Part shown: positions 1-59,270 of the stretch, in pieces
Layout of the letters: the number at the start of each line of letters is the position of its first letter
How positions within the stretch are numbered: the stretch's first letter is position 1
Assembly (NCBI GenBank): GCA_001777575.1
Contig: MFEL01000010.1
Location: 20,661 to 84,660 of the forward strand
Source of the DNA: Candidatus Doudnabacteria bacterium RIFCSPHIGHO2_01_FULL_46_24
Lineage (GTDB): Bacteria; Patescibacteriota; Doudnabacteria; UBA920; O2-02-FULL-48-8
DNA length: 64,000 nt
Direction: 5' to 3'
Made by a program: the position numbers and the translations under genes
Notes under the pieces: generated by a model
What the model was told of the DNA's origin: nothing
What the model saw: only the letters and a program-made list of their open reading frames with translations
Databases searched by the model: none

Positions 1-2328
1 ACTTACCAAAAATTGCTGCTGGACAATTCTTATCTGGATTTTGGCGACTTGATTAATTTCACTTTGAAACTTTTTCGCACTCGTCCGAAAATTCTCAAAC
101 GGTACCAAGCCCAGTATAAATACATTTTGGTGGATGAATTCCAAGATACGGATTTTTCACAATACGAAATGGTCAAGCTGCTGGCCATGCCGCAAAATAA
201 CCTCACGGTGGTTGGTGATGACGACCAGTCCATCTACAAATTCCGCGGCGCATCCGTCTCCAATATTTTGCAATTCAAAAGTGATTTCAAAAAAGCTCAA
301 GAAGTCACTCTGACTGAAAATTACCGCTCCAGCCAAAATATTTTGGATCTGGCTTATAAATTCATCCAGCAAAACAACCCTGAGCGCCTGGAGAGCAAGC
401 TTAAAATCGACAAAAAATTGAAGAGTGATAAAAAAGACCAAGGCCTCATTGAGGTTCTGCATGGCTCCAACATCCACGAAGAAGTGCGCTTGGTGGCTGA
501 TAAAATAAACGAGCTCACAGAGGCCGGTCTAAATTTAAGCGACTTTGCCATTCTGGTCCGAGCCAACGATTCGGCTGAGCCGTTTATCTCCGAATTGAGC
601 CGGCGCGGGGTTGGGTATATTTTTGTCGCCAACAGAGGGCTTTACAGAAAACCTTTTATCCTTGATCTCTTGGCATACTTGCGCCTTCTGGACAACCACC
701 ACGAAAGTGAAAACCTGTTTCGGGTGCTTGCAATGGAGAATTTCAAAATCTCGGATGCGGATTTGATGAACATTACCAGAACCGCGAAAATCAAGGCTCT
801 GTCGGTTTTTCATGTCCTGAGCAATGCCCGCAGTCTGATTAGGCTTGATGCCCCATCGGCCAAAAAAATCGACACGGTTGTGGGATTGATCGAGAAACAC
901 ACAGCGATGGCCCGCAGCACGCCTATATCTGAACTTATTGTTCGGATTCTTGATGATTTGGGTTTAATTAAGGAACTAAGCGCGGACAACGCCGCTGTTT
1001 CTGAGAAACGCAGCATGCTCGAGCAATTCTATAAGAAGGTTATGAGTTTTGAGGATGAGAGCAATGACAAAACCCTCAGAGGCTTTCTTGAAAATTTAAG
1101 GCTGGAGCTGGAAGCTGGGGATTTGGGAGAGCTTTCATACAATCCCGATTTGGGCCCGGAGGCAATGCGCCTCATGACAATCCATTCAGCCAAAGGGCTG
1201 GAGTTCAAATGCGTGTTTGTAGTCAACCTGGTTGACCAAAGATTTCCTTCCAGGGAGCGCCGGGATCAGATCGAAATCCCGTCGGAGTTAGTCAAGGAAA
1301 TCCTGCCGGAAGGGGATGTGCACCTGATGGAAGAGCGGCGGTTGTTTTACGTCGCGTGCACGCGAGCGAAGCAAAATCTCTATCTGACTTGGGCCGACGA
1401 CTACGGCGGCACCACGAACAAAAAGCCTTCCCGATTTTTGATTGAGCTTGATTTTGCCAAGCTCCCCGAAAAGTCCAAACCCGCCGGCGAGGTAATTTTC
1501 AAAAACCCGCCTGCGATCACAGATCACGGATCAAAGATCACGAATCAACTATTCATCCCCGATACTTTTTCGTTTTCTCAAATCAACACTTTTCGCAACT
1601 GTCCTTTGGAATACAAGCTGCGCTATATCTACCAATTGCCCCTTCCAGGTTCTTCGCACTTGTCACTGGGCGATACGGTCCATAAGACGCTCTATAAATT
1701 TTTAAGCCACTATGACCGCCTGAATAAACAAAAACAAGCTGATCTGTTCGGGGCGAAGCAGACCGCATCCGAAGTCCCAGGTTTGGATCTTTTAAAAAAG
1801 TTCTACGAAGAGTCCTGGGTGGACGATTGGTACCCGGACGCCATTGAAAAAAACCACGCCCGCAAGCTCGGGTGGGAGATGTTAGAAACGTTTCACAAAA
1901 GATTTTCGGAGCAACCCTCAACCATCAAATTTCTTGAGCAAAAATTCAAACTGAAACTGGGCAATTTCAAATTCACGGGCAAAATTGACCGCGCGGATCT
2001 CAACAGTGACAACTCGATTGACATCATTGACTACAAAACCGGCAAAATCAAGGAAAAATTGACGGCCGAGGACAAGGATCAACTGTTCATCTACCAATGG
2101 GCGGCGCAGGAGCAATTCAAGGAAAAAGTCCGCACCCTTAAATATTGGTACCTAAAAAGCCTCGGCGACAGTCCGAAATTCCTGGGCAGCAGCCAAGACA
2201 TCGAAAAAGTTAAGGTTAAACTCCTTCAGACCATCGAGCAAATAATCGACGCCATCAAATCAAATTCCTTCCCCAAACTCGACCAAAAAATTTCCCACGA
2301 CTGCAAATACCGTGATTTTATGGTATAA
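1..2328 (+). CDS. UvrD/PcrA/AddA-like ATP-dependent DNA helicase fused to a C-terminal PD-(D/E)XK nuclease domain; 5' end lies outside the window
   Basis: Helicase motifs VVGDDDQSIYKFRGA, TENYRSSQNIL and MTIHSAKGLEFKCVFV; C-terminal nuclease-like block IDYKTGK...DCKYRDF; ORF runs to the window edge. Confidence 0.8.
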   Translation, partial: TYQKLLLDNSYLDFGDLINFTLKLFRTRPKILKRYQAQYKYILVDEFQDTDFSQYEMVKLLAMPQNNLTVVGDDDQSIYKFRGASVSNILQFKSDFKKAQEVTLTENYRSSQNILDLAYKFIQQNNPERLESKLKIDKKLKSDKKDQGLIEVLHGSNIHEEVRLVADKINELTEAGLNLSDFAILVRANDSAEPFISELSRRGVGYIFVANRGLYRKPFILDLLAYLRLLDNHHESENLFRVLAMENFKISDADLMNITRTAKIKALSVFHVLSNARSLIRLDAPSAKKIDTVVGLIEKHTAMARSTPISELIVRILDDLGLIKELSADNAAVSEKRSMLEQFYKKVMSFEDESNDKTLRGFLENLRLELEAGDLGELSYNPDLGPEAMRLMTIHSAKGLEFKCVFVVNLVDQRFPSRERRDQIEIPSELVKEILPEGDVHLMEERRLFYVACTRAKQNLYLTWADDYGGTTNKKPSRFLIELDFAKLPEKSKPAGEVIFKNPPAITDHGSKITNQLFIPDTFSFSQINTFRNCPLEYKLRYIYQLPLPGSSHLSLGDTVHKTLYKFLSHYDRLNKQKQADLFGAKQTASEVPGLDLLKKFYEESWVDDWYPDAIEKNHARKLGWEMLETFHKRFSEQPSTIKFLEQKFKLKLGNFKFTGKIDRADLNSDNSIDIIDYKTGKIKEKLTAEDKDQLFIYQWAAQEQFKEKVRTLKYWYLKSLGDSPKFLGSSQDIEKVKVKLLQTIEQIIDAIKSNSFPKLDQKISHDCKYRDFMV

Positions 2329-5452: not shown

Positions 5453-6838
5453 ATGGAAACAGAGCGCAATGTAATAAAAAAAATCTCCTCGGAGGGGGAG
5501 GATTGGGTTAACAGACGCGAATCTGCCAGAGAAGATGAACCGGAACATAAAAGGCAGGATATATTTGGCGCCAACTTTTTGCATTGGTGGAACATTGCGC
5601 ATAAAACAGGCGAGGATTGGTCTAAAATGACCGTTGGTCGTCTTGCGGATCATATCAACAAAACAGCTGACCAAACATGGAAACGGAATTTTAAGCGATT
5701 AGAAGAAGAGATGGTCGCGGGTGCAAAAACGGATCCCTGGTCTTTTCAGCAGTTTTTCGCAAATTATCTGATGGATAGAGTGCCCGATCTTGGGCGATTA
5801 AGTAAGCGCCTCGATTTAAGCATGAAACAGCCAAGAGCGAACCAGGATCTTATCCTGTTGGCGGCTGTGTTTGAGGGAGAAAGAGGAGCTAAAGCCACGG
5901 AACTGGGGATTAGTTTGACTGCGGAATATCAGAATGGCAATAAGATTCTCCCGGCAAAACTCGTGGCTTCAATGATTGATTATCATAGTCAGCATGTGTT
6001 GGAAAGCGAGCGCCAATTTATGGAAATGATCCCGGAATACTTGGACAAGATAAAAACGCTATTACTTGCCGCTTCTAATTCGGGAGAGATTCCGATAAAG
6101 ACAGATACGATTTTAGAACGCCTGGGGGCTTTACGTTTTGCGGTTGTGGACGGCCTGACTGCGAAACTCCGGGACTTTTCCGGCGACTTTAAAGACCACA
6201 CGCATACGATTAGAATCTCGTCTGAAGCCCGGCCCGAGCACGTTGGCATGATTATGTCCCATGAAATTATCCATGCGCTGGCTGGGCAACTGGAATATTC
6301 CAGCGTTTCGAAGGTGTTTGAAGATAATCCTGAACTCTTTGTTCTAGTCGAGCGTCATGAGTTATTAAAAGGCGGCTTGCACTTTAGTAAAGACGTTGGA
6401 GAAAAACAATCGGATTTGCCTTCTCTACGCTTGCGTTGGTTAAACGAAGCATTGACGGAACAAGCGGCAATCGATTTGGTCAAGGGAACGGAATACGTAG
6501 GCTTTGACACTTATGAGCTTGAAAGAAAACTTCTAGATAAACTGGTCGCTCTGGGTATATCAAAATCGTTGCTTTATGAGGCTTATTTTGAAAATTATGC
6601 GGCTGACTCTACCGGCGGACACCGCCTTCCCAAAACGCGGGAGTTATTTGAAACAGTCAATCGTTTGCTTGGCCGCGGCTTTTTGGTTAATCTGGATATT
6701 TATATAAGATCCAATCGAGACGGCGTAAAATTAGCATTGCAGAAATGGGAAGACCTAGGTGCTGAATTTCCGTCATTTATTAACGATTTCGGCGCAGGTA
6801 AAATTAAAGAATTAAGGGATAGTTCGGAATTAAGGTAA
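5453..6838 (+). CDS. hypothetical protein with HExxH...NEAxxE gluzincin-like motif (putative zinc metallopeptidase)
   Basis: MSHEIIHAL, then about 60 aa later WLNEALTEQAA (thermolysin-like NEAxSD pattern); no signal peptide; the start may lie further downstream (next candidate ATG about 5627). Confidence 0.4.
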   Translation: METERNVIKKISSEGEDWVNRRESAREDEPEHKRQDIFGANFLHWWNIAHKTGEDWSKMTVGRLADHINKTADQTWKRNFKRLEEEMVAGAKTDPWSFQQFFANYLMDRVPDLGRLSKRLDLSMKQPRANQDLILLAAVFEGERGAKATELGISLTAEYQNGNKILPAKLVASMIDYHSQHVLESERQFMEMIPEYLDKIKTLLLAASNSGEIPIKTDTILERLGALRFAVVDGLTAKLRDFSGDFKDHTHTIRISSEARPEHVGMIMSHEIIHALAGQLEYSSVSKVFEDNPELFVLVERHELLKGGLHFSKDVGEKQSDLPSLRLRWLNEALTEQAAIDLVKGTEYVGFDTYELERKLLDKLVALGISKSLLYEAYFENYAADSTGGHRLPKTRELFETVNRLLGRGFLVNLDIYIRSNRDGVKLALQKWEDLGAEFPSFINDFGAGKIKELRDSSELR

Positions 6839-7271: not shown

Positions 7272-7322
7272 TTGCGGGTTTGCGGATTACGCATTTAATC
7301 CGTAATTCGTTAATTCGCAATT
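7272..7322 (+). repeat. CGGATTACG / AATCCGTAATTCG hairpin repeat in the gyrB 5' UTR
   Basis: Shares words with 11161-11224, 12045-12117, 31822-31856 and 50155-50216. Confidence 0.5.
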
Positions 7323-16428: not shown

Positions 16429-16917
16429 ATGAAAATATCCATTGTTGTCGCGGTGGCGAAAAACGGTGTGATCGGGAAGAGCAATGATTTGCCCTTTTAC
16501 ATTCCCGAAGATTTGAAGCACTTCAAAAAGGTCACGGACGGTCATACGGTGCTTATGGGCAAGAAAACCTACGACTCCATTATCAACCGCCTGGGCAAGC
16601 CCTTGCCGAATCGCCGCAGTGTGGTCATCACCAGACAGACTGATTTTCAAGCGCCTGATGGCGTCTTGGTTTTTCACGACCTCAATCAAGCGCTCGCAGC
16701 GCTCGAAATAGATACGGACGTACTGATGGTCATCGGCGGCGGCCAGATCTTTAAGCAGTTTGCAGATATGGGAAAAGTTGATAAAATATACATGACTCAC
16801 GTGCATCGAGAAGTTGACGGTGACGTCAAATTTCCGGATATTGATTTGTCGAAATGGCGGAAAATCAGTGAAGAGCCGCACGAGCAATTCACGTGGGTAG
16901 AATATGAAAAGAGTTGA
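16429..16917 (+). CDS. folA: dihydrofolate reductase
   Basis: ISIVVAVAKNGVIGKSNDLPFYIPEDLKHFKKVT...VIGGGQIF. Confidence 0.9.
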   Translation: MKISIVVAVAKNGVIGKSNDLPFYIPEDLKHFKKVTDGHTVLMGKKTYDSIINRLGKPLPNRRSVVITRQTDFQAPDGVLVFHDLNQALAALEIDTDVLMVIGGGQIFKQFADMGKVDKIYMTHVHREVDGDVKFPDIDLSKWRKISEEPHEQFTWVEYEKS

Positions 16918-16923
16918 ATGTTT

Positions 16924-16993
16924 ATAAAGTTCTGAGTTCTAAGTTTGTAAAGTCAAAAGCAACTTTATGAACTCAGAACTTAGAACTAAATCT
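16924..16993 (+). repeat. AGTTCTGAG/AGTTCTAAG palindromic repeat element, copy A
   Basis: tttataaagttctgagttctaagtttgtaaagtcaaaagcaactttatgaactcagaacttagaact; related copies at 20236-20286 and 59209-59270. Confidence 0.7.
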
Positions 16994-19820: not shown

Positions 19821-20242
19821 AAATCATCCTAACCAAGGACGTTCCGGGATTTGGCAGAGCCGGAGAAATCAAGGAGGCCAGCGACGGCTATGCCCGAAAT
19901 TTTCTGCTCCGCAGACGCTTGGCGCTGCCTGCAACCGCTGAACTTCTTGCCAAGGTGCAGATTGAAGAACAGACGCGCCAAAACAGGCTAAAAGAACAGG
20001 AAGAATCAGCCGGGGCACTTAAATACAAACTGGAAGCGAAAACATTCGTCGTTAAAGCCAAAGCAAACAAGGACAGGCTATTTGCGGCCATTCATGAAAA
20101 AAACATTGCTGCGGCAACCGGTTTGGATGCGAAGCAGATTGTCATAAGTGAACCGATCAAAACTTTGGGCATGCACGAAGTAGAAGCCAAACTGTTTGAG
20201 AATATTAAAGCTAAAATTAAAATTAGCGTCGAAAGTTTATAA
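19817..20242 (+). CDS. rplI: 50S ribosomal protein L9
   Basis: [31 protein letters not shown]. Confidence 0.9.
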
Positions 20243-20286
20243 AGTTACTTTTGACTTTACTCACTTAGAACTCAGAACTTAGAACT
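20236..20286 (+). repeat. AGTTCTGAG-family repeat, copy B (partial, reverse orientation)
   Basis: tttataaagttacttttgactttactcacttagaactcagaacttagaact ends exactly at the pyrG ATG. Confidence 0.7.
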
Positions 20287-22295: not shown

Positions 22296-22336
22296 ACCCC
22301 TGCAAACTCTGGCCTTGCAGGATTTTTATTTATCAA
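22296..22336 (+). terminator. rho-independent terminator
   Basis: CCTGCAA-actctggcc-TTGCAGG followed by aTTTTTaTTTaT. Confidence 0.7.
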
Positions 22337-22425
22337 GCAAATAATACCATGTTACTTAGCGTGGTAGTAGATGTAAAAAAAATAAAAAAGCCGCGGGTTG
22401 CGACTTGACTGGTTCGAGTAGGAAC

Positions 22426-23089: not shown

Positions 23090-24445
23090 TCAATTTTCAA
23101 GTTCTAAATTGCCAATTAAAACTTGATCATTATTTGATAATTGATCATTGCTAATTGTTAATTCTTCTTGCAATTTTCCGTATTGAAAAATTATTATTTC
23201 CCGTGCTACCACTTGATCCTTGCGGTCGTAGACGGTTGAGCCGCGCTCGGTAATTTTCAAAAATTTGTACTTCTTGGCAATGTCTTTGGGCAGCGGATCC
23301 ACAACAGTATAGCCGGAAGTGAGAGCAAAGTCAATGCTGGGCATATACTCATACTCGCTGGCTCTCAACTTATATGCCGGCAGACACATGACCACGCGGC
23401 ATCCGGACTGTAAAAATTTGGCAAATTCCTTAAAGACTTGGCTGTAAAGTTTTGTCAGCATTTTGAAATTTGCAGCCATCTCAGTCTTTTTTGGAACTTG
23501 GCCGTAAATGGGTCCAAGCGTGCCTTCGGTAATGATGGCTTTAATGTCGAACTTAGGCAGTTGCAAAGAAATTTCCGCGGCGTCGGATTGAAACAGCTTA
23601 TAACGCCCGATTGCGATATGGTAGCGGTTGCGAAACCATTCCAAATTTTTTTCGCTGTTCTCAATAGCTTTACTGTCTAGGTCCGAACCCACGACGCGCA
23701 AACCCAGCAAAGTCGCTTCCTGCAAGATCGTGCCGGAGCCGCAAAAAGGATCGAGGACGTAATCCAGCGGTTTGAAGTTGCCGCCCAGATTGATCATGGA
23801 TTGCGCCACTTTCGGCGGAATCATGCCCGCTTTTTCATCCCTGGCCGGGCGTTGGTAATCGCGACGACCATAGTCCTCGTAATTCTGCACGGATATGGTT
23901 TTGCCTATAAACACCCTCTGGGTGCCCGACACCACCACGATCTCCGCCCCTTTGGCCAAAATTTGGTTTTCAGTGACCTGCACTGACGACAAAGCCTGCG
24001 AGGGAAATAGCGGGATCACGGCGCGCACGCTGAGCGCGTCTTCTTGCAAAATCTTCTTGATTAGAAAAGCGACCCGGGTCGCTTCCTCGCGAAATCGAAG
24101 GGCCGGATCAAGAGTATAAATCGAAACGCCAAATTGTTTTTTGCCGGTGTAGGGCGTAAAATAATCGTTATTGATTTTCTTGAACGTAAAATAAGGGCCG
24201 AGGACTTGCGAGGGGTATTCCTTGCCCTTCTTTTGAAAAGTGTCAATAAGTCGTATAATCTTAATAACGCCGCCCAGACGAGGCTGAAGCTTTTCGGGGT
24301 TAAGTGGCTGGTCAAGCTCCAAGACCACGACTTCAGGGCCGCAAGCCATGACTTTATAGGCAAAGCCGGAATTTTTCAAAACCTCCAACAGCTCGGCAAG
24401 CGACAGGGTATACACCCGGCCCAAAATAAATGCGTATCTATGCAT
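23090..24445 (-). CDS. RNA methyltransferase, DPFCGSGT (N6-adenine/N2-guanine) class, RlmL/Trm14/THUMP-like
   Basis: SAM-motif VLDPFCGSGTILQEA; the first ATG at 24445 sits inside the palindrome ATGCAT (the alternative TTG at 24475 would give the 461-aa ORF). Confidence 0.55.
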   Translation of the reverse strand: MHRYAFILGRVYTLSLAELLEVLKNSGFAYKVMACGPEVVVLELDQPLNPEKLQPRLGGVIKIIRLIDTFQKKGKEYPSQVLGPYFTFKKINNDYFTPYTGKKQFGVSIYTLDPALRFREEATRVAFLIKKILQEDALSVRAVIPLFPSQALSSVQVTENQILAKGAEIVVVSGTQRVFIGKTISVQNYEDYGRRDYQRPARDEKAGMIPPKVAQSMINLGGNFKPLDYVLDPFCGSGTILQEATLLGLRVVGSDLDSKAIENSEKNLEWFRNRYHIAIGRYKLFQSDAAEISLQLPKFDIKAIITEGTLGPIYGQVPKKTEMAANFKMLTKLYSQVFKEFAKFLQSGCRVVMCLPAYKLRASEYEYMPSIDFALTSGYTVVDPLPKDIAKKYKFLKITERGSTVYDRKDQVVAREIIIFQYGKLQEELTISNDQLSNNDQVLIGNLELEN

Positions 24446-24820
24446 AAATTCAAAGAATTCGTAAAAAACCACCAACTAAAAATTGCGCTTTCTATAGGCT
24501 ATTTGCTGGTGGCCAGCCTGGCATTTGGATTGGGAAGGCTCACGGCGTTCAAATACGATGCCCCGGAAATTAATATTGAGCAGGCTTTCAGCGCGCCCAC
24601 CAATTATAGCGGAAGTGTCGCGGGAATTCAAACCGAAACTACTTCATCGACTAGCCCGACTGCCGATGATTGTCCCGGCAAAATCAAGGGCAACATCAGC
24701 TCAACCGGAAAAATTTATCATATGCCAGGCGGCGCGTTTTACAACCGCACAAACCCGGAAATCTGCTTTACGACCGAATCCGAAGCCCAAGCCGCCGGAT
24801 TCAGGAGGTCAAGTCGATGA
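24440..24820 (+). CDS. small secreted or membrane-anchored protein with a conserved C-terminal Cys-pair domain
   Basis: N-terminal hydrophobic anchor LKIALSIGYLLVASLAFGL; C-terminal CPGKIKGNISSTGKIYHMPGGAFYNRTNPEICFTTESEAQAAGFR. Confidence 0.35.
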   Translation: MHKFKEFVKNHQLKIALSIGYLLVASLAFGLGRLTAFKYDAPEINIEQAFSAPTNYSGSVAGIQTETTSSTSPTADDCPGKIKGNISSTGKIYHMPGGAFYNRTNPEICFTTESEAQAAGFRRSSR

Positions 24821-25998
24821 ATCGAATTTATCTCGACTACGCGGCAACCACGCCCCTTGACCCCGCTGTATCGAAAACCATACGGGACTTCGAATTGAAA
24901 TATTTAGGCAACCCAAGCTCGGTCCATCGCGAAGGGCAGCAGGCTCGGGCCGAAATAGATTTTGCCCGCGCCGCCATTGCCAAATTCCTCAATGCCAAAC
25001 CTCAAGAAATAATTTTTACATCAGGAGCCACAGAAGCAAACAATCATGCTATCAAGGGAGTGGTCAGCCGCGCCCTTTTTGACTGGGGGATGCGGCCGCA
25101 TATCATTACAACCGAACTTGAGCATCATTCCGTTTACAATGTCGTCAAGGAAATGGAAAAAAGGGGAGTGGTGGAAGCGACCTTCATTAAGCCAAGTTCA
25201 GACGGCCTGATTTCCGCTGACCAAGTGATCAAGGAAATCAAGAATAATACCGTCTTAATCTCCGTTATTTTCGTCTCCAACGAGATCGGCTCCGTCCTGC
25301 CAATCAGAGAAATAGGCAAGCAACTATCATCTATCAACTCTCATCTATCAACTAACCGAAAAGTTTTTTTCCACGTTGACGCCGTCCAGGCCGCTAAATT
25401 CTACAATCTCAACGTCGAAAAACTAGGATGCGACCTCATGACTATTACTGCCCACAAACTTTACGGCCCCAAGGGAGTTGGGGCACTATATATGAGAACA
25501 GGGCTTAAAATCGATAATTTGATGTCTGGCGGGGCTCAAGAATACGCCATGAGGCCGGGCACCCAAAATACGGCTGGGATCATCGGTTTTGCCAAGGCAG
25601 TTAAACTGTTAGGCGGTTTGGAAGAGCGCGAAGCTTTGGGTAAAAAAATTGGCGAATTACGTAATCAATTACGTAATTCAATCGAATCAATTCCCGGCGT
25701 TGAAATGAATGGTCCGATGGGGGACTGTCGAAGCCCGGACAACTTAAGCGTTACCGTGCGCGACATTGACCAAGACAGCCTGATTACCGCTCTGGATCTA
25801 GCCGGCATCGCGGCTTCCACCGGCTCGGCCTGCGTTTCCGGCTCATCCGAGCCCTCCCACGTCATCCAAGCGCTTGGTAAAATTACAGACAGCCAGTCAG
25901 CCACAGTTAGATTCACTTTGGGTAAATTCACTACTGAAAAAGAGATTAAACAAATACTCAAAATTTTTCCCGAAATTGTAAACAGGCTTAGGAAATAA
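24817..25998 (+). CDS. cysteine desulfurase (class V aminotransferase, IscS/NifS-like)
   Basis: ATG at 24817 preceded by AGGAGG; YLDYAATTPLDP; SGATEANN; a PLP lysine region in AHKLYGPKG. Confidence 0.9.
   Translation: MNRIYLDYAATTPLDPAVSKTIRDFELKYLGNPSSVHREGQQARAEIDFARAAIAKFLNAKPQEIIFTSGATEANNHAIKGVVSRALFDWGMRPHIITTELEHHSVYNVVKEMEKRGVVEATFIKPSSDGLISADQVIKEIKNNTVLISVIFVSNEIGSVLPIREIGKQLSSINSHLSTNRKVFFHVDAVQAAKFYNLNVEKLGCDLMTITAHKLYGPKGVGALYMRTGLKIDNLMSGGAQEYAMRPGTQNTAGIIGFAKAVKLLGGLEEREALGKKIGELRNQLRNSIESIPGVEMNGPMGDCRSPDNLSVTVRDIDQDSLITALDLAGIAASTGSACVSGSSEPSHVIQALGKITDSQSATVRFTLGKFTTEKEIKQILKIFPEIVNRLRK
25318..25360 (+). repeat. in-frame ATCAACTATCA-type short repeat inserted in the cysteine desulfurase CDS
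   Basis: caactatcatctatcaactctcatctatcaacta encodes QLSSINSHLSTN; related to 34262-34312 in fmt. Confidence 0.6.
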
Positions 25999-26902: not shown

Positions 26903-27060
26903 GAACTAATAAACCTACCATAACCGAGTAATTTTGTCCAGGCGCCACGGATGTGCAGGATTGACTTTGTCGGAGATTTTTGTTATACTTATCCGTTCTT
27001 TCGTATATGAGTCCCAAGGAGGACTTTTTGCGCGCCATACCGGCGCGCGTGGAGGCAACG

Positions 27061-28137
27061 ATGAGACGCTTGCTCGTAGCGGTCGCGCTCGTGGCATTTC
27101 TGCTCGGTATCGTGACTGGAGCAAAAGCTGGCGGAGTGGAACGGACCATCTTGTCGCTGGACCTCAACAGCGACGGTCGGGAGGATCTGCTCGTATACGA
27201 CCCGACGACCGGCGCGTTCACACGAGTGTTCCAGTATCCCGGCTGGCCATACGCCGCGCCGACCGAATACTGGCTGCCAGGGATGAATGTGGTCATGGGA
27301 TTTCTGGACGAGGATGCCTCGCCAGACGTGATCTTCTACGACCCGGCAACCGGCCTGGTCTGGCAGGCTCTCAACTACGCTGGGACGCTATATGTTACCA
27401 CCGTCACGTCCTGGCCCAGGGGCATGCTGGCGTACCCGTTTGACCACAACGGCGACGGGGCTACGGATTTCTTCCTGTACAACCGGGTAACAGGGGAGTG
27501 GTCACTCCAGCTCAACACCTGGAACGGCTACTTCACGGAAGTCAACGGCCGGTGGTCTGAGGGCTGGGAGATACGAGTGGGTAACTTCTCCGCCTTCGAT
27601 CATAACCAGGACCTGCTCCTGTACAACCGGGAGACAGGCGTCTGGTACAAGGCCCTGTCTGACGGCTTCGGCGGGTTCTATTACTCACAGCCTGGCCGCT
27701 GGTCGCCGGGATGGAACGTGTCCATCGGGCGATTCAATATCGACGCGGCCGATGACGTGTTCCTCTACAACCCTGTAACCGGAGTCTGGTTTCGGGTCTT
27801 CTCGGATGGCTGGACCGGCTTCTACTGGTACGAGAGGGGGGGATGGTCGGCGGGGTGGAGTGTTCTCATCGCGAGGCTGGAAAAACGCGGCCTCGATGAC
27901 CTGATTCTCTACCATGCTGGCACTGGCGCTGGGTTCGCCTGCGTAACGCAAGCCTACGCCGGCTTCAGGTACCATCGGCTGACGCTGTACAATAGTGCCG
28001 TGCCGATGGTGCAGGACTTCAGCGGGGATCGGCTGTCCGATCTGCTGCTGTGGATTGACCTGACCAACCCGGTCGGGTTCAGTCGGTACAAGTCCGTGCT
28101 AAGAGGAGGCAACTTCGACCACCTTGAGTGGTGGTAG
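27061..28137 (+). CDS. secreted FG-GAP/VCBS-like repeat protein, predicted 7-bladed beta-propeller (high GC)
   Basis: Signal peptide MRRLLVAVALVAFLLGIVTGAKA; 7 repeats of about 50 aa with D-x-[DN]-x-D-G-x-x-D-L/F plus the hydrophobic YNxxTGxW pattern. Confidence 0.6.
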   Translation: MRRLLVAVALVAFLLGIVTGAKAGGVERTILSLDLNSDGREDLLVYDPTTGAFTRVFQYPGWPYAAPTEYWLPGMNVVMGFLDEDASPDVIFYDPATGLVWQALNYAGTLYVTTVTSWPRGMLAYPFDHNGDGATDFFLYNRVTGEWSLQLNTWNGYFTEVNGRWSEGWEIRVGNFSAFDHNQDLLLYNRETGVWYKALSDGFGGFYYSQPGRWSPGWNVSIGRFNIDAADDVFLYNPVTGVWFRVFSDGWTGFYWYERGGWSAGWSVLIARLEKRGLDDLILYHAGTGAGFACVTQAYAGFRYHRLTLYNSAVPMVQDFSGDRLSDLLLWIDLTNPVGFSRYKSVLRGGNFDHLEWW

Positions 28138-30356: not shown

Positions 30357-31802
30357 TCACGATTGGAATAATTTTTCAATGGCCGTATTTAATCTTTTCA
30401 AAATTATTTCCTTACCGTTTGGCAAAACAGCAAACGCATCCATGATTTCAAACGGCCCGGGGCTGGCTTCCAATCCAGTCAAAGCCACCCTAAGCGGCCA
30501 GAGTATAGCACCTTTGTCTTTATCCCCGATCTCGGCAAAAAAAGCATTTTGAATTTCTTCTTTGGAAATTGGGAATTGGCAATTGATAATTATTTTTTTA
30601 GCAATTTCTAGTGATTCGCTTAATTGGCGATTATCCACCTTTTTCCACCGAAGCATCTCTGGGTCATATGCAGGATCGCTAAAAAAATATTTGACCCTCT
30701 CCCCTATCTCAGAGAGCTTCTTAAGCCTCGCTTGTTCCAAAAGCAAAATCCTCAGCAAAAATTCTTTGGGATATTTTTCAAGCTCAAACCCCGCCCTGAT
30801 TAAGTACGGACTAATTCGCGCGAATAAGTCCTCGACTTTCAGGCTGCGGATATAAACTCCATTGAGCCAATCCAGTTTTTCCGGATCAAACACTGCGCCG
30901 GCTTTATTGAGCTTATCCAGGGAAAATTCTTCAGTCAGTTCGCGAAGGTTAAAAATTTCCTGCTCGGTTTTGGGGTTCCAGCCAAGCAGAGCGACGAAGT
31001 TAAGCAGGGCCTCGGGCAAATAACCTTGCTCCAAAAAATCTTTGACCGCAACATCGCCTTCCCGCTTGGAAAGTTTTTTGCGCGTTTTGGAAAGCAGCAG
31101 CGGCAGATGCACGAATTGAGGCAGCGGCCAGCCGAAAAATGAGTAAAGCAAAATATGCTTCGGCGCCGAAGGTACCCACTCCTCTCCCCTAATGACATGG
31201 GTGATGCCCATCAAATGATCATCAACCGTCGCCGCCAAATGGTAAGTCGGAAAACCGTCAGATTTCAAAAGCACCTGGTCATCCAAATCGTCCGATGAAA
31301 CGGAAATTTGCCCATGAATCACATCGGCAAAACTTATCCGCTGGCCGGCAGGTACGTTCATCCGGATTACGTGTGGCTCATTAGCTCGCAGTTTCGCTTC
31401 TGTTTCATCCTTTGAAAGCTTAAGACAATGTTTGTCATATTTAGGCGGCTGCTTGTTCTCCTGCTGCTGTTTGCGCAATTGATCAAGTCTCTCTGGCGCG
31501 CAAAAACAATGGTAGGCATGGCCTTTGTCTATAAGTTCCTGTGCGTGTTTGAAGTAAATGTCCAGTCGCTGCGACTGCAAAATAGGGCCTTCATCGAAGT
31601 TAAGCCTGAAATCCTTGAGGGTCTGCACGATATTCTCAAGTGATCCCGGCACAGTTCTTTTGACATCCGTGTCTTCGATGCGCAGGATAAATTTGCCGTT
31701 GTTTTTCCTGGCCCACAAAAATTCATAAAGCGCGGTGCGCAATCCGCCGATATGCAAAAATCCCGTGGGACTTGGAGCAAACCTGGTTCGTACTTCGGGC
31801 AT
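30357..31802 (-). CDS. gltX: glutamyl-tRNA synthetase
   Basis: RFAPSPTGFLHIGGLRTALY (HIGH), KKLSKREG (KMSKS). Confidence 0.95.
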   Translation of the reverse strand: MPEVRTRFAPSPTGFLHIGGLRTALYEFLWARKNNGKFILRIEDTDVKRTVPGSLENIVQTLKDFRLNFDEGPILQSQRLDIYFKHAQELIDKGHAYHCFCAPERLDQLRKQQQENKQPPKYDKHCLKLSKDETEAKLRANEPHVIRMNVPAGQRISFADVIHGQISVSSDDLDDQVLLKSDGFPTYHLAATVDDHLMGITHVIRGEEWVPSAPKHILLYSFFGWPLPQFVHLPLLLSKTRKKLSKREGDVAVKDFLEQGYLPEALLNFVALLGWNPKTEQEIFNLRELTEEFSLDKLNKAGAVFDPEKLDWLNGVYIRSLKVEDLFARISPYLIRAGFELEKYPKEFLLRILLLEQARLKKLSEIGERVKYFFSDPAYDPEMLRWKKVDNRQLSESLEIAKKIIINCQFPISKEEIQNAFFAEIGDKDKGAILWPLRVALTGLEASPGPFEIMDAFAVLPNGKEIILKRLNTAIEKLFQS

Positions 31803-31821: not shown

Positions 31822-31856
31822 AGGATTACGAATTGTCAATCCGTAATCCGTAATTC
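31822..31856 (+). repeat. GGATTACG-aattgtcaat-CCGTAATCC hairpin (CGGATTACG repeat family) in the gltX 5' region
   Basis: 8-bp stem; the same word family as 7272-7322. Confidence 0.5.
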
Positions 31857-32665
31857 TTCAATTTATATTTATACACTTTCCAAATAAACACCGGCACCGC
31901 GTTCCACATTCGCTTAATCCGCCACGGCTGGGTGATCAGCCGCCACAGCCACTCCAAGCCCATGTCATGCAAGAACTTGGGCGCCTGGGGCTGTTTTCCG
32001 GCGATATAATCGAATGTGCCGCCCAAACCAATGGCGACTTTAACGTTCAATTTTTGAAGATTTTGGGCCAGCCACATCTCTTGCTTGGGCGGCGAATAAG
32101 CTATAAGCAGTATATCAGAATTACTCTGGTTTATCCTCTCGACCAGAGCGTCGTCAAATTCACAGTCAGACAAGGCCAGATTAATCCTTAATTCTTTATT
32201 CTGACTCCTTAATTCTTCTCCAGCTTTTCCTGCAACATCATCGGTTCCGCCGACCAGGGCCAAAGAGTAGCCGCGGTCAGCCGCAAGTTTAGCGATATCC
32301 CAAATTAAATGGCTGCCGGTGACCTGTTCTTTTATGACCGACCGAATCCAAGCGGGATAAAAAATTATTGCGGCAAGCGAGAGAATAAGATTTGAAAAAT
32401 GAAAATTGAAAATTGAAAATTGTTTCTTTCGTTGCAACGAAAGAAACTTAGCTGCCCAAAGTATACCAATGCCGTCCGGCAATGAAAGATTCGCGCTGTT
32501 AAGGACTTTTTTATAATTTTCGTCCCGTTGAGCAAATACAATCAGCTCTGAATATGGCGTAGTGACCAGGTGCGGCTGACCGTTTTGAACAAATTGATCA
32601 ATCGCGGCAATAGCCTCCTGCTTCAATACGCTGACAACCTGCACACCGGCAATGTCTATTTTCAT
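31826..32665 (-). CDS. WecB/TagA/CpsF-family glycosyltransferase
   Basis: LSLPDGIGILWAAKFL, GGTDDVAGKAGEEL, 279 aa; carries an in-frame repeat insertion. Confidence 0.75.
   Translation of the reverse strand: MKIDIAGVQVVSVLKQEAIAAIDQFVQNGQPHLVTTPYSELIVFAQRDENYKKVLNSANLSLPDGIGILWAAKFLSLQRKKQFSIFNFHFSNLILSLAAIIFYPAWIRSVIKEQVTGSHLIWDIAKLAADRGYSLALVGGTDDVAGKAGEELRSQNKELRINLALSDCEFDDALVERINQSNSDILLIAYSPPKQEMWLAQNLQKLNVKVAIGLGGTFDYIAGKQPQAPKFLHDMGLEWLWRLITQPWRIKRMWNAVPVFIWKVYKYKLKNYGLRIDNS
32394..32447 (+). repeat. in-frame insertion in the WecB/TagA CDS: (GAAAATT)x3 tandem repeat plus perfect palindrome GTTTCTTTCG-ttgcaa-CGAAAGAAAC
   Basis: Encodes LQRKKQFSIFNFHF on the minus strand; reading frame preserved. 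Confidence 0.6.
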
Positions 32666-34080: not shown

Positions 34081-35004
34081 ATGGCGCATAAAATAGTCTT
34101 TGCAGGCACAACTGATTTTGGCATCCCGACTCTCGAAATACTAAATACTAAATACCAAATACTGGCCATTGTCACCCAACCTGATCGACCCGCTGGAAGA
34201 AAAAAAGCGCTCTCCCCTTCCCCGATCAAACTGTGGGCCGAAAAAAATAACATTCCGGTTTTACAACCCGAGGAACTATCAACTATCACCCATCAACTAT
34301 CAACTTTAGAGCCCGGTCTTTTGCTTGTCGCCGCGTACGGCCAGATCATTCCCAAGGATATCCTCGACATCCCTAAATTCGGCTCAATCAACATTCACGG
34401 ATCCCTCCTTCCCAAATACCGTGGAGCTAGCCCGATCCAAGCGGCGATATTGCGCGGAGAAACCGAAACCGGCATCACGCTTATCAAAATGGACGAGAAA
34501 ATGGATCATGGCCCTGTTATCGCCCAAGCAATGATGACGATTGATGATAATGATGACTTCATAACTCTTTACAAAAAACTCTCGGATCTCTCAGCCGACT
34601 TGGTCATGGAAACCCTACCCAAGTGGTTTACCGGCCAAATGAGAAGTACCGAGCAGCGTCATGAGCAAGCTACTTACACCAAGCTTTTTGCGCACAGCGA
34701 TGGCCGGGTCGACTGGGCTACACCGGCTGTTGAGGTAGATCGAAAAGTCAAAGCCTTGAATCCTGAACCGGGCGTGTGGACTACGCTTGACAAAAAATCT
34801 GTTAAAATACTAAAAACAAAAGCGCTGCCTGATGCCAAAATTGAGCTTCCCGGAAAAATTTACGAAAGCGGCAATGAAATGCTGGTCAAATGCCAACTGG
34901 GGAGCCTGCAAATTCTCTATCTGCATCCGGAAGGCCGCAAACCCATGACCGGCCGCGACTTCTTAAACGGCCTGAAGTCAAGATCTAACGCAATGTTTAT
35001 ATAA
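34081..35004 (+). CDS. fmt: methionyl-tRNA formyltransferase
   Basis: MAHKIVFAGTTDFGIPTLE start; formyltransferase core SLLPKYRGASPIQ; C-terminal domain. Confidence 0.9.
   Translation: MAHKIVFAGTTDFGIPTLEILNTKYQILAIVTQPDRPAGRKKALSPSPIKLWAEKNNIPVLQPEELSTITHQLSTLEPGLLLVAAYGQIIPKDILDIPKFGSINIHGSLLPKYRGASPIQAAILRGETETGITLIKMDEKMDHGPVIAQAMMTIDDNDDFITLYKKLSDLSADLVMETLPKWFTGQMRSTEQRHEQATYTKLFAHSDGRVDWATPAVEVDRKVKALNPEPGVWTTLDKKSVKILKTKALPDAKIELPGKIYESGNEMLVKCQLGSLQILYLHPEGRKPMTGRDFLNGLKSRSNAMFI
34262..34312 (+). repeat. in-frame ATCAACTATCA-type short repeat inserted in the fmt CDS
   Basis: gaactatcaactatcacccatcaactatcaacttta encodes EELSTITHQLSTL; same repeat words as 25318-25360. Confidence 0.6.
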
Positions 35005-45380: not shown

Positions 45381-45454
45381 TCCGGGATCGTCTAACGGTA
45401 GGACGGCGGACTCTGAATCCGCTAATCTTGGTTCGAATCCAAGTCCCGGAGCCA
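45381..45454 (+). tRNA. tRNA-Gln (anticodon CUG)
   Basis: Acceptor TCCGGGA/TCCCGGA, D-arm TCGTCTAACGGTAGGACG, anticodon stem GCGGA-ctCTGaa-TCCGC, T-arm TTGGTTCGAATCCAAG, CCA encoded. Confidence 0.88.
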
Positions 45455-46092: not shown

Positions 46093-46160
46093 ATTTTTTC
46101 TTTCTTATATTAGTTATTTTTTAGAAATTTCATATATCAATCTCGTACAAACTGTTCACT

Positions 46161-46188
46161 TACTACCATGATACTTATCATGGTAGTA
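46161..46188. promoter_or_regulatory. 28-bp perfect palindrome TACTACCATGATA-ct-TATCATGGTAGTA (candidate operator)
   Basis: Lies between the LUD gene start and the TrpR-like gene end; near-identical copy at 46719-46745. Confidence 0.6.
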
Positions 46189-46206
46189 TTAACCCGAAAA
46201 ATTAAA

Positions 46207-46716
46207 TCATTGAGTAAGTAACTTATTTAACTCTGATGTCAAATGGGTTTTAGTTCTTAGCTGCTCAACAACCTTTAAGAGCCGCTGTTTTTCTCGCTTC
46301 TTAGCAGATTTTATAATCTCTTTCAAAAGCAGTTCTGGCCAAAAATACATCGGGTACTTCTTTTTAAGCTGGGAGTAGGGTTTGGCCAGTTCATCATCTG
46401 ACTTATTCCTGCTAGCGCATCTTTTAATAACTTCGCGATAGCCGTCTCCATAAAGCTCCAACCATGTTTGCACTCGCGCGATCGTGCCGGGGCCTGCCTT
46501 CAACCTTGACCTGATTTGATCATAGGTCAGGCCTTCGATCAGAAGTTCTGCTATTTGCAGGCGTCTAGCCAGCATTAATACTTCGACTTCAGAAAGTAAA
46601 TCCCTCAAAAAGTTGGCTGCTTCTTGGGAACTGTGCAGCGTTGTGATTGCTTTCGCAAGTTTGATAAAAAGTTCGTTCTGCTCCTGCTTCTTTAATTTAT
46701 ATTTCAAATTATGCAT
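46207..46716 (-). CDS. TrpR/YerC/YecD-family DNA-binding protein
   Basis: LSEVEVLMLARRLQIAELLIEGLTYDQIRSRLKAGPGTIARVQ. Confidence 0.7.
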   Translation of the reverse strand: MHNLKYKLKKQEQNELFIKLAKAITTLHSSQEAANFLRDLLSEVEVLMLARRLQIAELLIEGLTYDQIRSRLKAGPGTIARVQTWLELYGDGYREVIKRCASRNKSDDELAKPYSQLKKKYPMYFWPELLLKEIIKSAKKREKQRLLKVVEQLRTKTHLTSELNKLLTQ

Positions 46717-46718
46717 AT

Positions 46719-46745
46719 GCTACCATGATACTTATGATGGTAGTA
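46719..46745. promoter_or_regulatory. second copy of the palindromic operator (1 mismatch), abutting the start codon of the TrpR-like gene
   Basis: GCTACCATGATACTTATGATGGTAGTA. Confidence 0.6.
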
Positions 46746-46842
46746 TTTGTCAAACAATAAAATAGCTATTTGAATAAAATGTTATTTTCCAGTAAGCTTA
46801 AGCCTAAGAACTTATTATAAGTGGAATAATGTCATCCTGATG

Positions 46843-49485: not shown

Positions 49486-50697
49486 CTAAAAAACTTTATC
49501 TATCACTCCGCCGCCCAGAAGCTCATCGCCCTGGTAAATCACCGCTGCCTGCCCAGGTGTTATCGCCCTCTGGGGTTGATCAAAGACTATTTTTAATCTG
49601 TTTTCTGTTTCCTGTTTACTGATTACTGCTGGATAATTCAGATGATGATACCGGATGCTAACCCCGGCTTCCAACGAAAACTCAGGAACATTGCCTACCC
49701 AACTGACATCAGTAATCGTAAATTCTTTTTTCCAGAGCTGGGGATCGTTCTGATCATTACTTACAAACAGCCGGTTAGTTTCAAAGTCCTTATTGACGAC
49801 GTAATAAGGACCATCGCCGCCCAAACCCATGCCCTCTCTTTGGCCGATCGTATAATAGGGCAAACCATCATGCTGCCCGATTACCTGGCCTGAAGTAGCA
49901 ACTATCTCTCCTGCTACGGCCGGGATTTTTTCTTTCAAAAATTCTCTGACATTAATTTTGCCGATGAAACAAATCCCTTGGGAATCTTTTTTGGCATAAT
50001 TGGGCAATCCAAACTTTTTGGCTATTTGACGAACTTTTGACTTCTTGTATTCCCCTATCGGAAACAAAATTTTTGCCAGCTGTTCTTGTTTCAAAGTGTA
50101 AAGAAAGTAGCTTTGGTCTTTAGCTGGGTCAATCCCTTTGCGCAATTGATAAATTTTAGGATTGCGGATTGCGGATTGCGGATTGGCTTTTAATTCGTAA
50201 TTCGTAATTCGTAATTTTTTAATTCTGGCATAATGCCCCGTCGCGACATAATCCGCGCCAAGGGATAAGGCCTTGTCCAAAAATAACTTAAATTTAATCT
50301 CGCGATTGCACATCACATCCGGATTGGGCGTCCGACCGGCTGCATATTCGCGCAAAAAATACTCCACCACTTTCTCGTAATACTCTTTTTCAAAATTCCA
50401 GACGTAAAACGAGATGTCCAAAACCTTGGCCACTTTTCTGGCATCCTCAGCGTCCTCGACCCAAGTGCAGCCAAAGTCTCCCCGCCCAGTTCTGCTGGGC
50501 GAGGCTCCCGCTCCAGAGCGAGGCTCGCTCAACTCTGTTGAGCGGCGCCCCGATTTCGGGGCGGCAAAATCCTGCGACCAATTCTTCATAAACACGCCAA
50601 TAACATCATAGCCCTGCTTCTTAAGCAAAGCTGCAGCCACGGAGGAGTCAACTCCCCCACTCATGCCCACGACAATTTTTTGCTTGGGGTTGGACAT
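49486..50697 (-). CDS. mnmA: tRNA-specific 2-thiouridylase MnmA with two in-frame repeat insertions
   Basis: PP-loop VGMSGGVDSS, GHYAR, DQSYFL. Confidence 0.9.
   Translation of the reverse strand: MSNPKQKIVVGMSGGVDSSVAAALLKKQGYDVIGVFMKNWSQDFAAPKSGRRSTELSEPRSGAGASPSRTGRGDFGCTWVEDAEDARKVAKVLDISFYVWNFEKEYYEKVVEYFLREYAAGRTPNPDVMCNREIKFKLFLDKALSLGADYVATGHYARIKKLRITNYELKANPQSAIRNPKIYQLRKGIDPAKDQSYFLYTLKQEQLAKILFPIGEYKKSKVRQIAKKFGLPNYAKKDSQGICFIGKINVREFLKEKIPAVAGEIVATSGQVIGQHDGLPYYTIGQREGMGLGGDGPYYVVNKDFETNRLFVSNDQNDPQLWKKEFTITDVSWVGNVPEFSLEAGVSIRYHHLNYPAVISKQETENRLKIVFDQPQRAITPGQAAVIYQGDELLGGGVIDKVF
50155..50216 (+). repeat. in-frame tandem repeats (GCGGATT)x3 plus (AATTCGT)x3 inside mnmA
   Basis: Encodes ITNYELKANPQSAIRNPKI on the minus strand; same words as the UTR hairpin repeats (CGGATTACG family). 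Confidence 0.65.
50478..50570 (+). repeat. in-frame GC-rich palindromic insertion inside mnmA
   Basis: Three hairpins: GAGCGA-ggc-TCGCTC, CGCTCAAC-tctg-TTGAGCG and GCCCCG-attt-CGGGGC; encodes AAPKSGRRSTELSEPRSGAGASPSRTGRGDFG. Confidence 0.6.
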
Positions 50698-59209: not shown

Positions 59210-59270
59210 AGTTCTGAGTTCTAAGTTTCTAAAGTTAAACGCAACTTTATGAACTTAGAACTTTATAAAC
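59209..59270 (-). repeat. AGTTCTGAG-family repeat, copy C, between the secD stop and the secF start
   Basis: tagttctgagttctaagtttctaaagttaaacgcaactttatgaacttagaactttataaac; abuts the secF ATG. Confidence 0.7.

Follow-up and report, generated by a model that had tools for sequence, protein, structure and literature searches.

How does the same short sequence come to lie, in frame, in two unrelated housekeeping genes? The question is raised by a 64,000-nt stretch of contig MFEL01000010.1 (the whole of which we call the window) from Candidatus Doudnabacteria bacterium RIFCSPHIGHO2_01_FULL_46_24, in which a cysteine desulfurase gene (site A) and the formyltransferase gene fmt (site B) carry closely similar repeats. 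An earlier note, made from the letters of the DNA, had taken both for in-frame insertions of a small repeat that add peptides to the proteins, as seen with Rickettsia palindromic elements (RPEs). We consider it probable that sites A and B are instead two members of a genome-wide class of short heptanucleotide tandem arrays, which would arise by slippage or misalignment in a 7-nt register and be filtered by the reading frame and by what the protein tolerates.

The window DNA is also present in ENA, JGI and Logan assemblies (a population of the Rifle aquifer metagenomes), and its desulfurase and Fmt proteins are identical to the same-named proteins of the NCBI metagenome-assembled genome (MAG). 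Site A lies in a gene (24817-25998) that belongs to the Aminotran_5 cysteine desulfurases (Pfam Aminotran_5, E = 1e-75), and site B in fmt (34081-35004), which adjoins def. Both segments were found where the earlier note had placed them, with the peptides that it had given (QLSSINSHLSTN at A and EELSTITHQLSTL at B), and their nucleotide similarity goes beyond chance, since in 64 kb there are four copies of the 9-mer CTATCAACT, where 0.22 would be expected. All four copies fall within the two sites (two in each), and none of 100 shuffles reaches that number. The repeated unit is, however, not the one of 9-11 nt that had been proposed: Tandem Repeats Finder (TRF) returned a unit of 7 nt, with the consensus AACTATC, at both sites. 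Compared without gaps, A and B match at 26 of 32 positions, which is what two imperfect arrays of one unit yield automatically, and their super-periods differ (14 nt at site A, 21 nt at site B). Both are tandem direct repeats of 32-34 nt, with no inverted repeat or hairpin listed at either site. All four Leu codons across the two sites are CTA, the rarest Leu codon (5%). The array of site A is also present in two relatives (loci L089 and L091), and that of site B is kept, nearly identical, in L091 and L215.

Alignments with orthologs exclude in-frame insertion at the two sites. In Fmt the stretch from NIPVLQP to VAAYGQ, to which residues were said to have been added, measures 32 aa in 119 of the 120 homologs, and the segment has about the same length in Escherichia coli and in more distant Candidate Phyla Radiation (CPR) relatives. 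In the desulfurase the stretch from NEIG to DAVQ measures 37 aa against a commonest length of 35 among 120 relatives (29 in E. coli IscS), an excess of at most 2 aa, and the segment QLSSINSHLSTNRK aligns throughout with the LAEINAKQKHK-type sequence of the relatives. Sites A and B are not insertions because orthologs of both proteins have homologous segments at the matching position, an outcome that the earlier note had itself named as grounds for giving up its model. In AlphaFold2 models (41-sequence alignments; mean pLDDT 94.9 and 89.7) site B forms a predicted helix (residues 66-76) in the N-terminal domain of Fmt, with pLDDT of about 94-97, and site A the end of a helix (residues 163-174) together with the loop preceding the strand that bears the HVDAVQ motif. 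As modelled, the two segments thus occupy a pre-existing helix, or helix and loop, with no change in protein length.

What the two sites share with the other arrays of the window is the period. TRF detected 20 period-7 arrays, whereas 30 dinucleotide-preserving shuffles averaged 1.03, with at most 2 in any one of them. Under a stricter test (at least 13 matches of 14 at a fixed lag) five loci were recovered at lag 7, five at lag 14, two at lag 21 and one each at lags 16 and 19, with none at the remaining lags from 2 to 20 and shuffle means of at most 0.08. With the arrays (890 nt) masked, lag 7 could not be told apart from the other lags outside the multiples of three. The signal therefore resides in discrete arrays; a lag-7 bias spread diffusely over the genome, which disappears with the masking, was discarded. 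A 50-kb E. coli control that included def-fmt held no period-7 array, and its repeats had mostly multiple-of-three periods. Fourteen of the 20 arrays lie in coding sequences, and the hosts identified by Pfam are a UvrD-like helicase, a methyltransferase, the desulfurase, GltX, WecG (three arrays), Fmt (two), a P-type ATPase and MnmA (three). Most arrays lie within genes because the genome is 91% coding; the other six fall in non-coding DNA, which makes up 9% of the window, and intergenic DNA is thus the denser in arrays. Hence, the proposal of small repeats pervading housekeeping genes holds for the arrays as a class, some of which are lineage-specific in-frame additions, and fails for the two headline segments. 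About 16 different units occur among the 20 arrays of the window, no single 7-mer is over-represented (a dominant heptamer was looked for and none was found), and 142 canonical units were counted among 213 arrays.

That A and B nevertheless have one unit in common calls for no special event. Among the CPR loci, pairs of arrays within a locus share their canonical unit more often (3.0%) than pairs from different loci (0.62%; odds ratio 5, p = 7e-6), and even at the between-locus rate about one same-unit pair would be expected among the 18 well-separated arrays of the window. The shared unit is ordinary within-genome unit recurrence, not one element inserted twice. The triplet (AACTATC)3 is itself widespread in metagenomes, with at least 120 matches and every GC content represented among the matches listed. 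Among viral contigs it was found in 14, against 47, 6 and 17 contigs for composition-matched stop-free control units, and is thus not enriched there; with control units equally common in these contigs, AACTATC was rejected as a globally favoured unit. AACTATY arrays stand at other sites in Doudnabacteria relatives, which is only suggestive of a clade-level preference. Arrays of the AACTATC type also lie outside genes: L215 has (TAGTTGA)x4.7 and (ACTATCA)x4.4 as an inverted pair (6424-6492) upstream of the def-fmt region, and L216 a (CTATTAA)x4.3 array before arfC (1221-1250).

The class extends beyond the window, and the helix of Fmt that harbours site B appears to be hit repeatedly. Usable alignments of 66 CPR fmt genes gave, for the DNA encoding this helix, a lag-7 match of 0.329 on average; control windows of the same genes gave 0.271. 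The control 95th percentile, which 3.3 genes would be expected to pass, is exceeded by 16 of the 66. The units differ, including AAATTTC (in a Shapirobacteria), AACTACC (in two Patescibacteria), CAAATCT, AAGCTAA, ATTCTNG and ATAWCAG. At the protein level, the i/i+7 matches of Doudnabacteria Fmt vary by lineage (LST/LST, ILDS/ILDS, IRDL/IRDL, KIQDL/KIQDL, ISNL/ISNL), the pattern expected of repeated local homogenisation. The helix averages 2.18 lag-7 amino acid matches against 1.62 +/- 0.07 in a column-permuted null, with no excess at other lags, although the z-score overstates the significance of this difference because the Fmt sequences are phylogenetically related. Over 1.2 Mb of CPR loci the strict test gave counts of 46, 36 and 14 arrays at lags 7, 14 and 21, and at most 10 at every other lag; 25 of 82 CPR loci held at least one strict array. 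In four Doudnabacteria relatives there are 2.3-4.1 period-7 arrays per 10 kb, period 7 being the commonest TRF period. The array class is thus wide, and patchy, across the CPR loci examined.

Within genes the arrays bear the marks of the reading frame. An array of AAATACT units brings an in-frame TAA every third unit, and the array of this unit that lies upstream of site B in fmt (Table 1) escapes it by a T-to-C change in its third unit: the sole variant unit, AAATACC, turns TAC-TAA into TAC-CAA. This array has the same length as in relatives and, in the model, spans the end of a helix (residues 12-21), a turn and the start of a strand (residues 26-31). Read as its reverse complement, AACTATC meets a stop in every one of the three frames, and arrays of this unit can therefore lie within genes only in the sense direction, which explains the sense orientation of all three related arrays of the window. 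At the gltX array L091 is likewise 7-periodic, but its sequence has diverged.

Some other arrays do lengthen their hosts. Compared with the syntenic relative L091, the first WecG array (32392-32422) adds 7 aa (exactly 21 nt, or three units), the C-terminal one adds 6 aa, and the methyltransferase is longer by 5 aa. The earlier note had described a repeat followed by a palindrome in this WecB/TagA gene; both exist, with period 7 and 4.4 copies for the one and a 10-bp stem and 6-nt loop for the other. The two adjacent perfect arrays of mnmA amount to about 15 aa more than in solved MnmA structures (PDB alignment) and fall within a loop of 21 to 47 residues among relatives. One assembly (L088) has one unit fewer in each of them (-7 and -7 nt, in region 1950-2150 of L088) and is otherwise identical over 4.7 kb; through the loss of these 14 nt a TAA arises, and mnmA is broken into open reading frames (ORFs) of 155 and 249 aa. 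The partial mnmA of one NCBI MAG contig starts at this same point. The degenerate arrays of wecG, like A and B, are invariant in seven other contigs of the population. A short member of the Fmt cluster (P0130, 227 aa, with its start just 3' of site B) was considered as a frameshift variant and set aside: the DNA of its contig (L087, k141_2040959) is 100% identical to the window, so that P0130 is a truncated gene call. The unit AATTACG/CGTAATT was also seen to recur at 7283-7317, 25654-25679, 31838-31854 and 50191-50216, the last being one of the perfect mnmA arrays; the copy at 25654-25679, in the desulfurase gene, is a perfect palindrome with a 10-bp stem (GAATTACGTAATCAATTACGTAATTC).

Table 1. 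Heptanucleotide arrays and associated repeats of the window (positions count from its first letter)
Feature	Position	Strand	Host and details
Site A, (AACTATC)x4.9 array (TRF period 7)	25321-25354	+	Cysteine desulfurase, residues 169-180, peptide QLSSINSHLSTN; sequence caactatcatctatcaactctcatctatcaacta
Site B, (AACTATC)x4.6 array (TRF period 7)	34274-34305	+	fmt, residues 65-75 (ELSTITHQLST); sequence aactatcaactatcacccatcaactatcaact
(AAATACT)x4 array (TRF)	34136-34163	+	fmt, residues 19-28 (EILNTKYQIL)
AATTATC-like array, one mismatch from AACTATC	23134-23163	-	Near the C-terminus of the methyltransferase gene 23090-24475; encodes ELTISNDQLSNN
(CAATTTT)x4.4 array, then palindrome	32392-32422, then 32422-32447	-	WecG/TagA glycosyltransferase gene 31826-32665
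Degenerate (AAGAATT)x5.3 array	32181-32217	-	wecG; no length change
(ATTACGG)x2.4 array	31838-31854	-	C-terminus of wecG
(CAATTNC)x3.4 array	30562-30585	-	gltX 30357-31802; no length change
Two adjacent perfect arrays, (AATTACG)x3.7 and (CAATCCG)x3.9	50159-50216	-	mnmA 49486-50697; encode LRITNYELKANPQSAIRNP; TRF 100% matches
(CAGNAAA)x3.6 array	49597-49621	-	Near the C-terminus of mnmA
mnmA hairpin block	50478-50570	-	In-frame GC-rich insertion of 84 nt (28 aa), four tandem hairpins; not a heptamer array
(GATCACA)x3.9 array	1515-1541	+	UvrD/PD-(D/E)XK helicase-nuclease gene
Intergenic hairpin, both arms (AGTTCTN) heptamer arrays (repeat family D1, TRF)	16927-16987		Downstream of the gene ending at 16917

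The intergenic hairpin has a sister copy at 59210-59263 and a weaker one at 20220-20286; the first two fold with -30.0 kcal/mol (16927-16987) and -22.9 kcal/mol (59210-59263), and such (AGTTCTN)n hairpins 3' of genes look like terminators made of heptamer repeats.

We reason that primer-template slippage, or transient misalignment, in a 7-nt register would create the arrays and homogenise them, and that selection would retain only versions without a stop in any of the three phases, in which the frame holds and the peptide can be tolerated. The frame would be kept where changes compensate each other or add up to 21 nt (three units or 7 aa, about two alpha-helical turns). Slippage with subsequent selection would account for in-place arrays on variable surface segments, for imperfections that remove stops or restore needed residues, for the +/-7-nt variation of the young perfect mnmA arrays and for the i/i+7 co-variation in the Fmt helix. 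Several observations weigh against this account. Single steps of +/-7 nt are frameshifts, which makes lethal intermediates a problem for in-place arrays in important genes, and the route that would avoid them, substitution through misalignment, is conjecture. The lengths of A and B do not vary in the seven other contigs, with no slippage seen at either site, and the mnmA variant stems from one assembly only, as assembled sequence. There is, moreover, the conservation of synonymous sites. Taking all window arrays, chosen regardless of conservation, and comparing the codons of identical residues, we found the same codons within arrays in 27 of 36 cases in L091 (background 40%, p = 2e-5), 12 of 14 in L089 (p = 0.003), 12 of 17 in L215 (p = 0.012) and 19 of 31 in L216 (p = 0.055). 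The excess is weaker than over arrays picked after inspection, and synonymous sites are saturated between the compared species. Site A differs at one of 30 nt in L089, whose desulfurase has 78% amino acid identity. Neither this conservation nor the use of CTA is predicted by neutral slippage, and both leave room for selection at the nucleotide level. One possible explanation, and it is our reading only, is that if the units are homogenised each unit position would be read in all three codon phases, so that no position of an array would ever be fully synonymous.

Only tentatively, a broader reading may be put forward: a mutational process common to the CPR/Patescibacteria lineage might write 7-nt-periodic sequence in place into coding DNA, through misalignment in a 7-nt register with the replicase or a reduced repair set possibly behind it. 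Variable helices in essential proteins would then be overwritten and homogenised again and again, the arrays would resist synonymous change, and housekeeping genes with perfect arrays, such as mnmA, would be switchable by +/-7-nt frameshifts. Since three units make seven codons, a process acting in place would yield heptad-periodic peptides that fit alpha-helices.

The synonymous sites are also an argument for a functional nucleic-acid element, i.e. for (AACTATC)n, and perhaps other arrays, being selected as DNA or mRNA. It might serve as a platform for a protein that reads 7-nt units (cold-shock-type proteins of the OB-fold, the oligonucleotide/oligosaccharide-binding fold, bind about one heptamer each), or its clustered rare codons might slow translation where one domain borders on another. 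Conservation within arrays exceeds background in the four species comparisons, the CTA codons of A and B are retained in relatives, and L216 matches the upstream fmt array perfectly over 32 nt, whereas the gene products compared there have just 67% amino acid identity. AACTATC-type arrays recur outside genes in Doudnabacteria (the L215 and L216 arrays described above), and binding of heptamers by CspB has been noted (PMC4679880). We still judge such an element unlikely. Other units occupy the Fmt helix in L216, L008, L009 and other relatives, so that no specific motif is conserved there; the units are diverse, with no 7-mer over-represented, and (AACTATC)3 does not rise above its controls in viral contigs. 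Amino acid identity, besides, is lower within arrays (0.28-0.61) than outside them (0.63-0.75). We know of no binding protein or phenotype for heptamer arrays. Ectopic copying, in which micro gene conversion or template switching across 9 kb would have copied one site from the other, could draw on the match between A and B and on their common strand, unit and codon phase at LST; that match is automatic for arrays of one unit, of which a pair is expected per window anyway. The variant units (CTC at A, CCC or TCC at B) are inherited orthologously, and A and B each resemble their own orthologs in L089, L091 and L215 more closely than they resemble one another, which rejects recent conversion and places any copying before the species splits. 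As A and B are seen to evolve independently of each other in the four relative loci (L089, L091, L215 and L216), we give the copying model very little credence. Least probable of all is that chance, codon bias or convergence of two amphipathic helices, both needing an L-S-T pattern, produced the resemblance: both segments are helical in the models, and some i/i+7 similarity of Fmt persists even in the column-permuted null, but chance is contradicted by the shuffles, which never reach the four copies of the 9-mer, the codons used are rare rather than preferred, and, 7 not being a multiple of 3, codon periodicity cannot yield a 20-fold excess of period 7.

The model of the earlier note, a mobile or palindromic element of the RPE type inserted in frame in both genes and adding surface peptides, fares no better at the two sites, and we hold it to be highly improbable. 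In its favour are the true in-frame additions elsewhere in the window (28 aa for the mnmA hairpin block, about 15 aa for the mnmA arrays, 7 aa for WecG). Fmt, however, has a constant length, the desulfurase segment (+2 aa) aligns with its relatives, and A and B have no inverted repeat, differ in super-period and carry orthologously inherited variant units. The analogy fails for the arrays in general, which are non-palindromic tandem direct repeats of varying unit. The GC-rich hairpin insertion that had been pointed out in mnmA is real: its 28 aa are missing from 108 of 120 relatives, it contains three perfect 7-bp stems, and it sits just ahead of the catalytic-Cys region, flanked by FMKNW on one side and the GCTW cysteine on the other, with a predicted fold of four hairpins (-61 kcal/mol, z = -4.7). 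Two of its modules, H1 and H4 (FAAPKSGR and ASPSRTGRG), are nearly identical at the nucleotide level in the diverged mnmA orthologs L213 and L214, a point that also speaks for an RPE-type element, and one of these orthologs has a changed loop on an unchanged stem. The modules were found nowhere in 216 loci besides mnmA orthologs, and no known RNA family was matched in Rfam. Of everything in the window the block behaves most like an RPE, though no dispersed family turned up.

Further features of the window stand apart from the arrays. A palindrome of about 43 nt with an 11-bp stem (TACTACCATGATA..TATCATGGTAGTA) occurs at 46148-46190 and 46705-46747, with a weaker copy at 22329-22371; the pair flanks the gene 46207-46716 and, from its sequence, looks like a candidate operator. 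The ORF at 26980-28137 (+) is GC-rich (58.8% over 26-28 kb against about 48% elsewhere), has no Pfam match and contains 144-nt (48 aa) repeats of the form DLLLYNxxTGxW, by eye like propeller repeats of the FG-GAP/VCBS type; it may have been acquired horizontally. A tRNA gene (45381-45451, +) is the sole match in the window at the Rfam gathering score.

The lineage offers a compact natural system for the study of such repeats. Each 100 kb holds dozens of arrays, placed in essential genes that are well understood; orthologous sites are open to comparison over many genomes, the Fmt helix is a recurrent hot spot, and a +/-7 polymorphism is visible. It makes testable the questions of how arrays originate, why the period is 7 and whether protein evolution is shaped by heptad-periodic rewriting of helices. 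In practical terms, in-gene repeats of these genomes should not be taken as insertions of mobile elements, and variation in array length can cause apparent pseudogenes and contig breaks in MAGs.

Our literature search found nothing that links CPR bacteria to heptamer repeats, and the arrays are best placed by comparison with systems known from elsewhere. RPEs are a dispersed family of palindromic elements of roughly 100-150 bp that add residues to proteins. The arrays resemble them in being in-frame repeats in housekeeping genes that are left intact, whereas A and B are non-palindromic direct repeats of 32-34 nt that add no residues to Fmt. With phase-variable contingency loci, in which tracts of simple sequence repeats (SSRs) lie in or upstream of genes, as described for Haemophilus (PMC2651432, PMC8262952), they share tracts within ORFs whose change in copy number shifts the frame (mnmA in one assembly, where the gene is truncated). 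They differ in their hosts, which serve translation and tRNA modification rather than the surface or host interaction, and in that A and B are degenerate and invariant; no association with surface or host-interaction genes was found among fmt, the cysteine desulfurase, mnmA, gltX, the UvrD-like helicase, the P-type ATPase and wecG. The tandem repeats of Borgs, which are described as creating new intrinsically disordered protein regions (PMC9879509), are likewise pervasive and rapidly evolving within ORFs of an uncultivated subsurface lineage. Here the unit is of 7 nt, the arrays are short, and A and B rewrite structured helices in place.

Closer parallels are found among heptamers. The short tandemly repeated repetitive (STRR) sequences of cyanobacteria and the TAACTGA repeats of Beggiatoaceae and cyanobacteria (PMC4679880), as well as GGGAATC/GGGGAYT of Xanthomonas and Nostoc (PMC4692102), are in these accounts mainly intergenic. 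They have the period of 7 and the tandem arrangement in common with our arrays, as well as some inverted hairpin pairs (in the window, the two stronger (AGTTCTN) hairpins), and LSVISYQ, the peptide that TAACTGA gives when read in reverse, is similar to the QLSTINY of AACTATC. In those families one or a few units dominate each genome, whereas the units here are diverse and the arrays mostly genic. Heptanucleotide repeats have been described as the most abundant class of long SSRs in prokaryotes, for which polymerase slippage was proposed (Mrazek, Guo and Shah 2007, PNAS, as related in PMC4692102 and PMC4679880); by the account of PMC4692102, there was no detailed literature on heptameric repeats as of 2015, and slippage is the sole mechanism proposed there. 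Sites A and B consist of head-to-tail 7-nt copies, and period 7 is over-represented against both shuffles and other periods. The likeness to long heptanucleotide SSRs thus comprises tandem 7-nt units in few copies, an excess over other periods, diverse units and a higher density in intergenic DNA. The differences are that the arrays lie here mostly in housekeeping genes, several of them in place with no change in length, that arrays keep recurring at one protein helix across a radiation of phylum level, and that synonymous sites are conserved. What we describe is a known kind of heptanucleotide SSR in an unusual form: mostly genic, often in place, recurrent at one helix and synonymously conserved.

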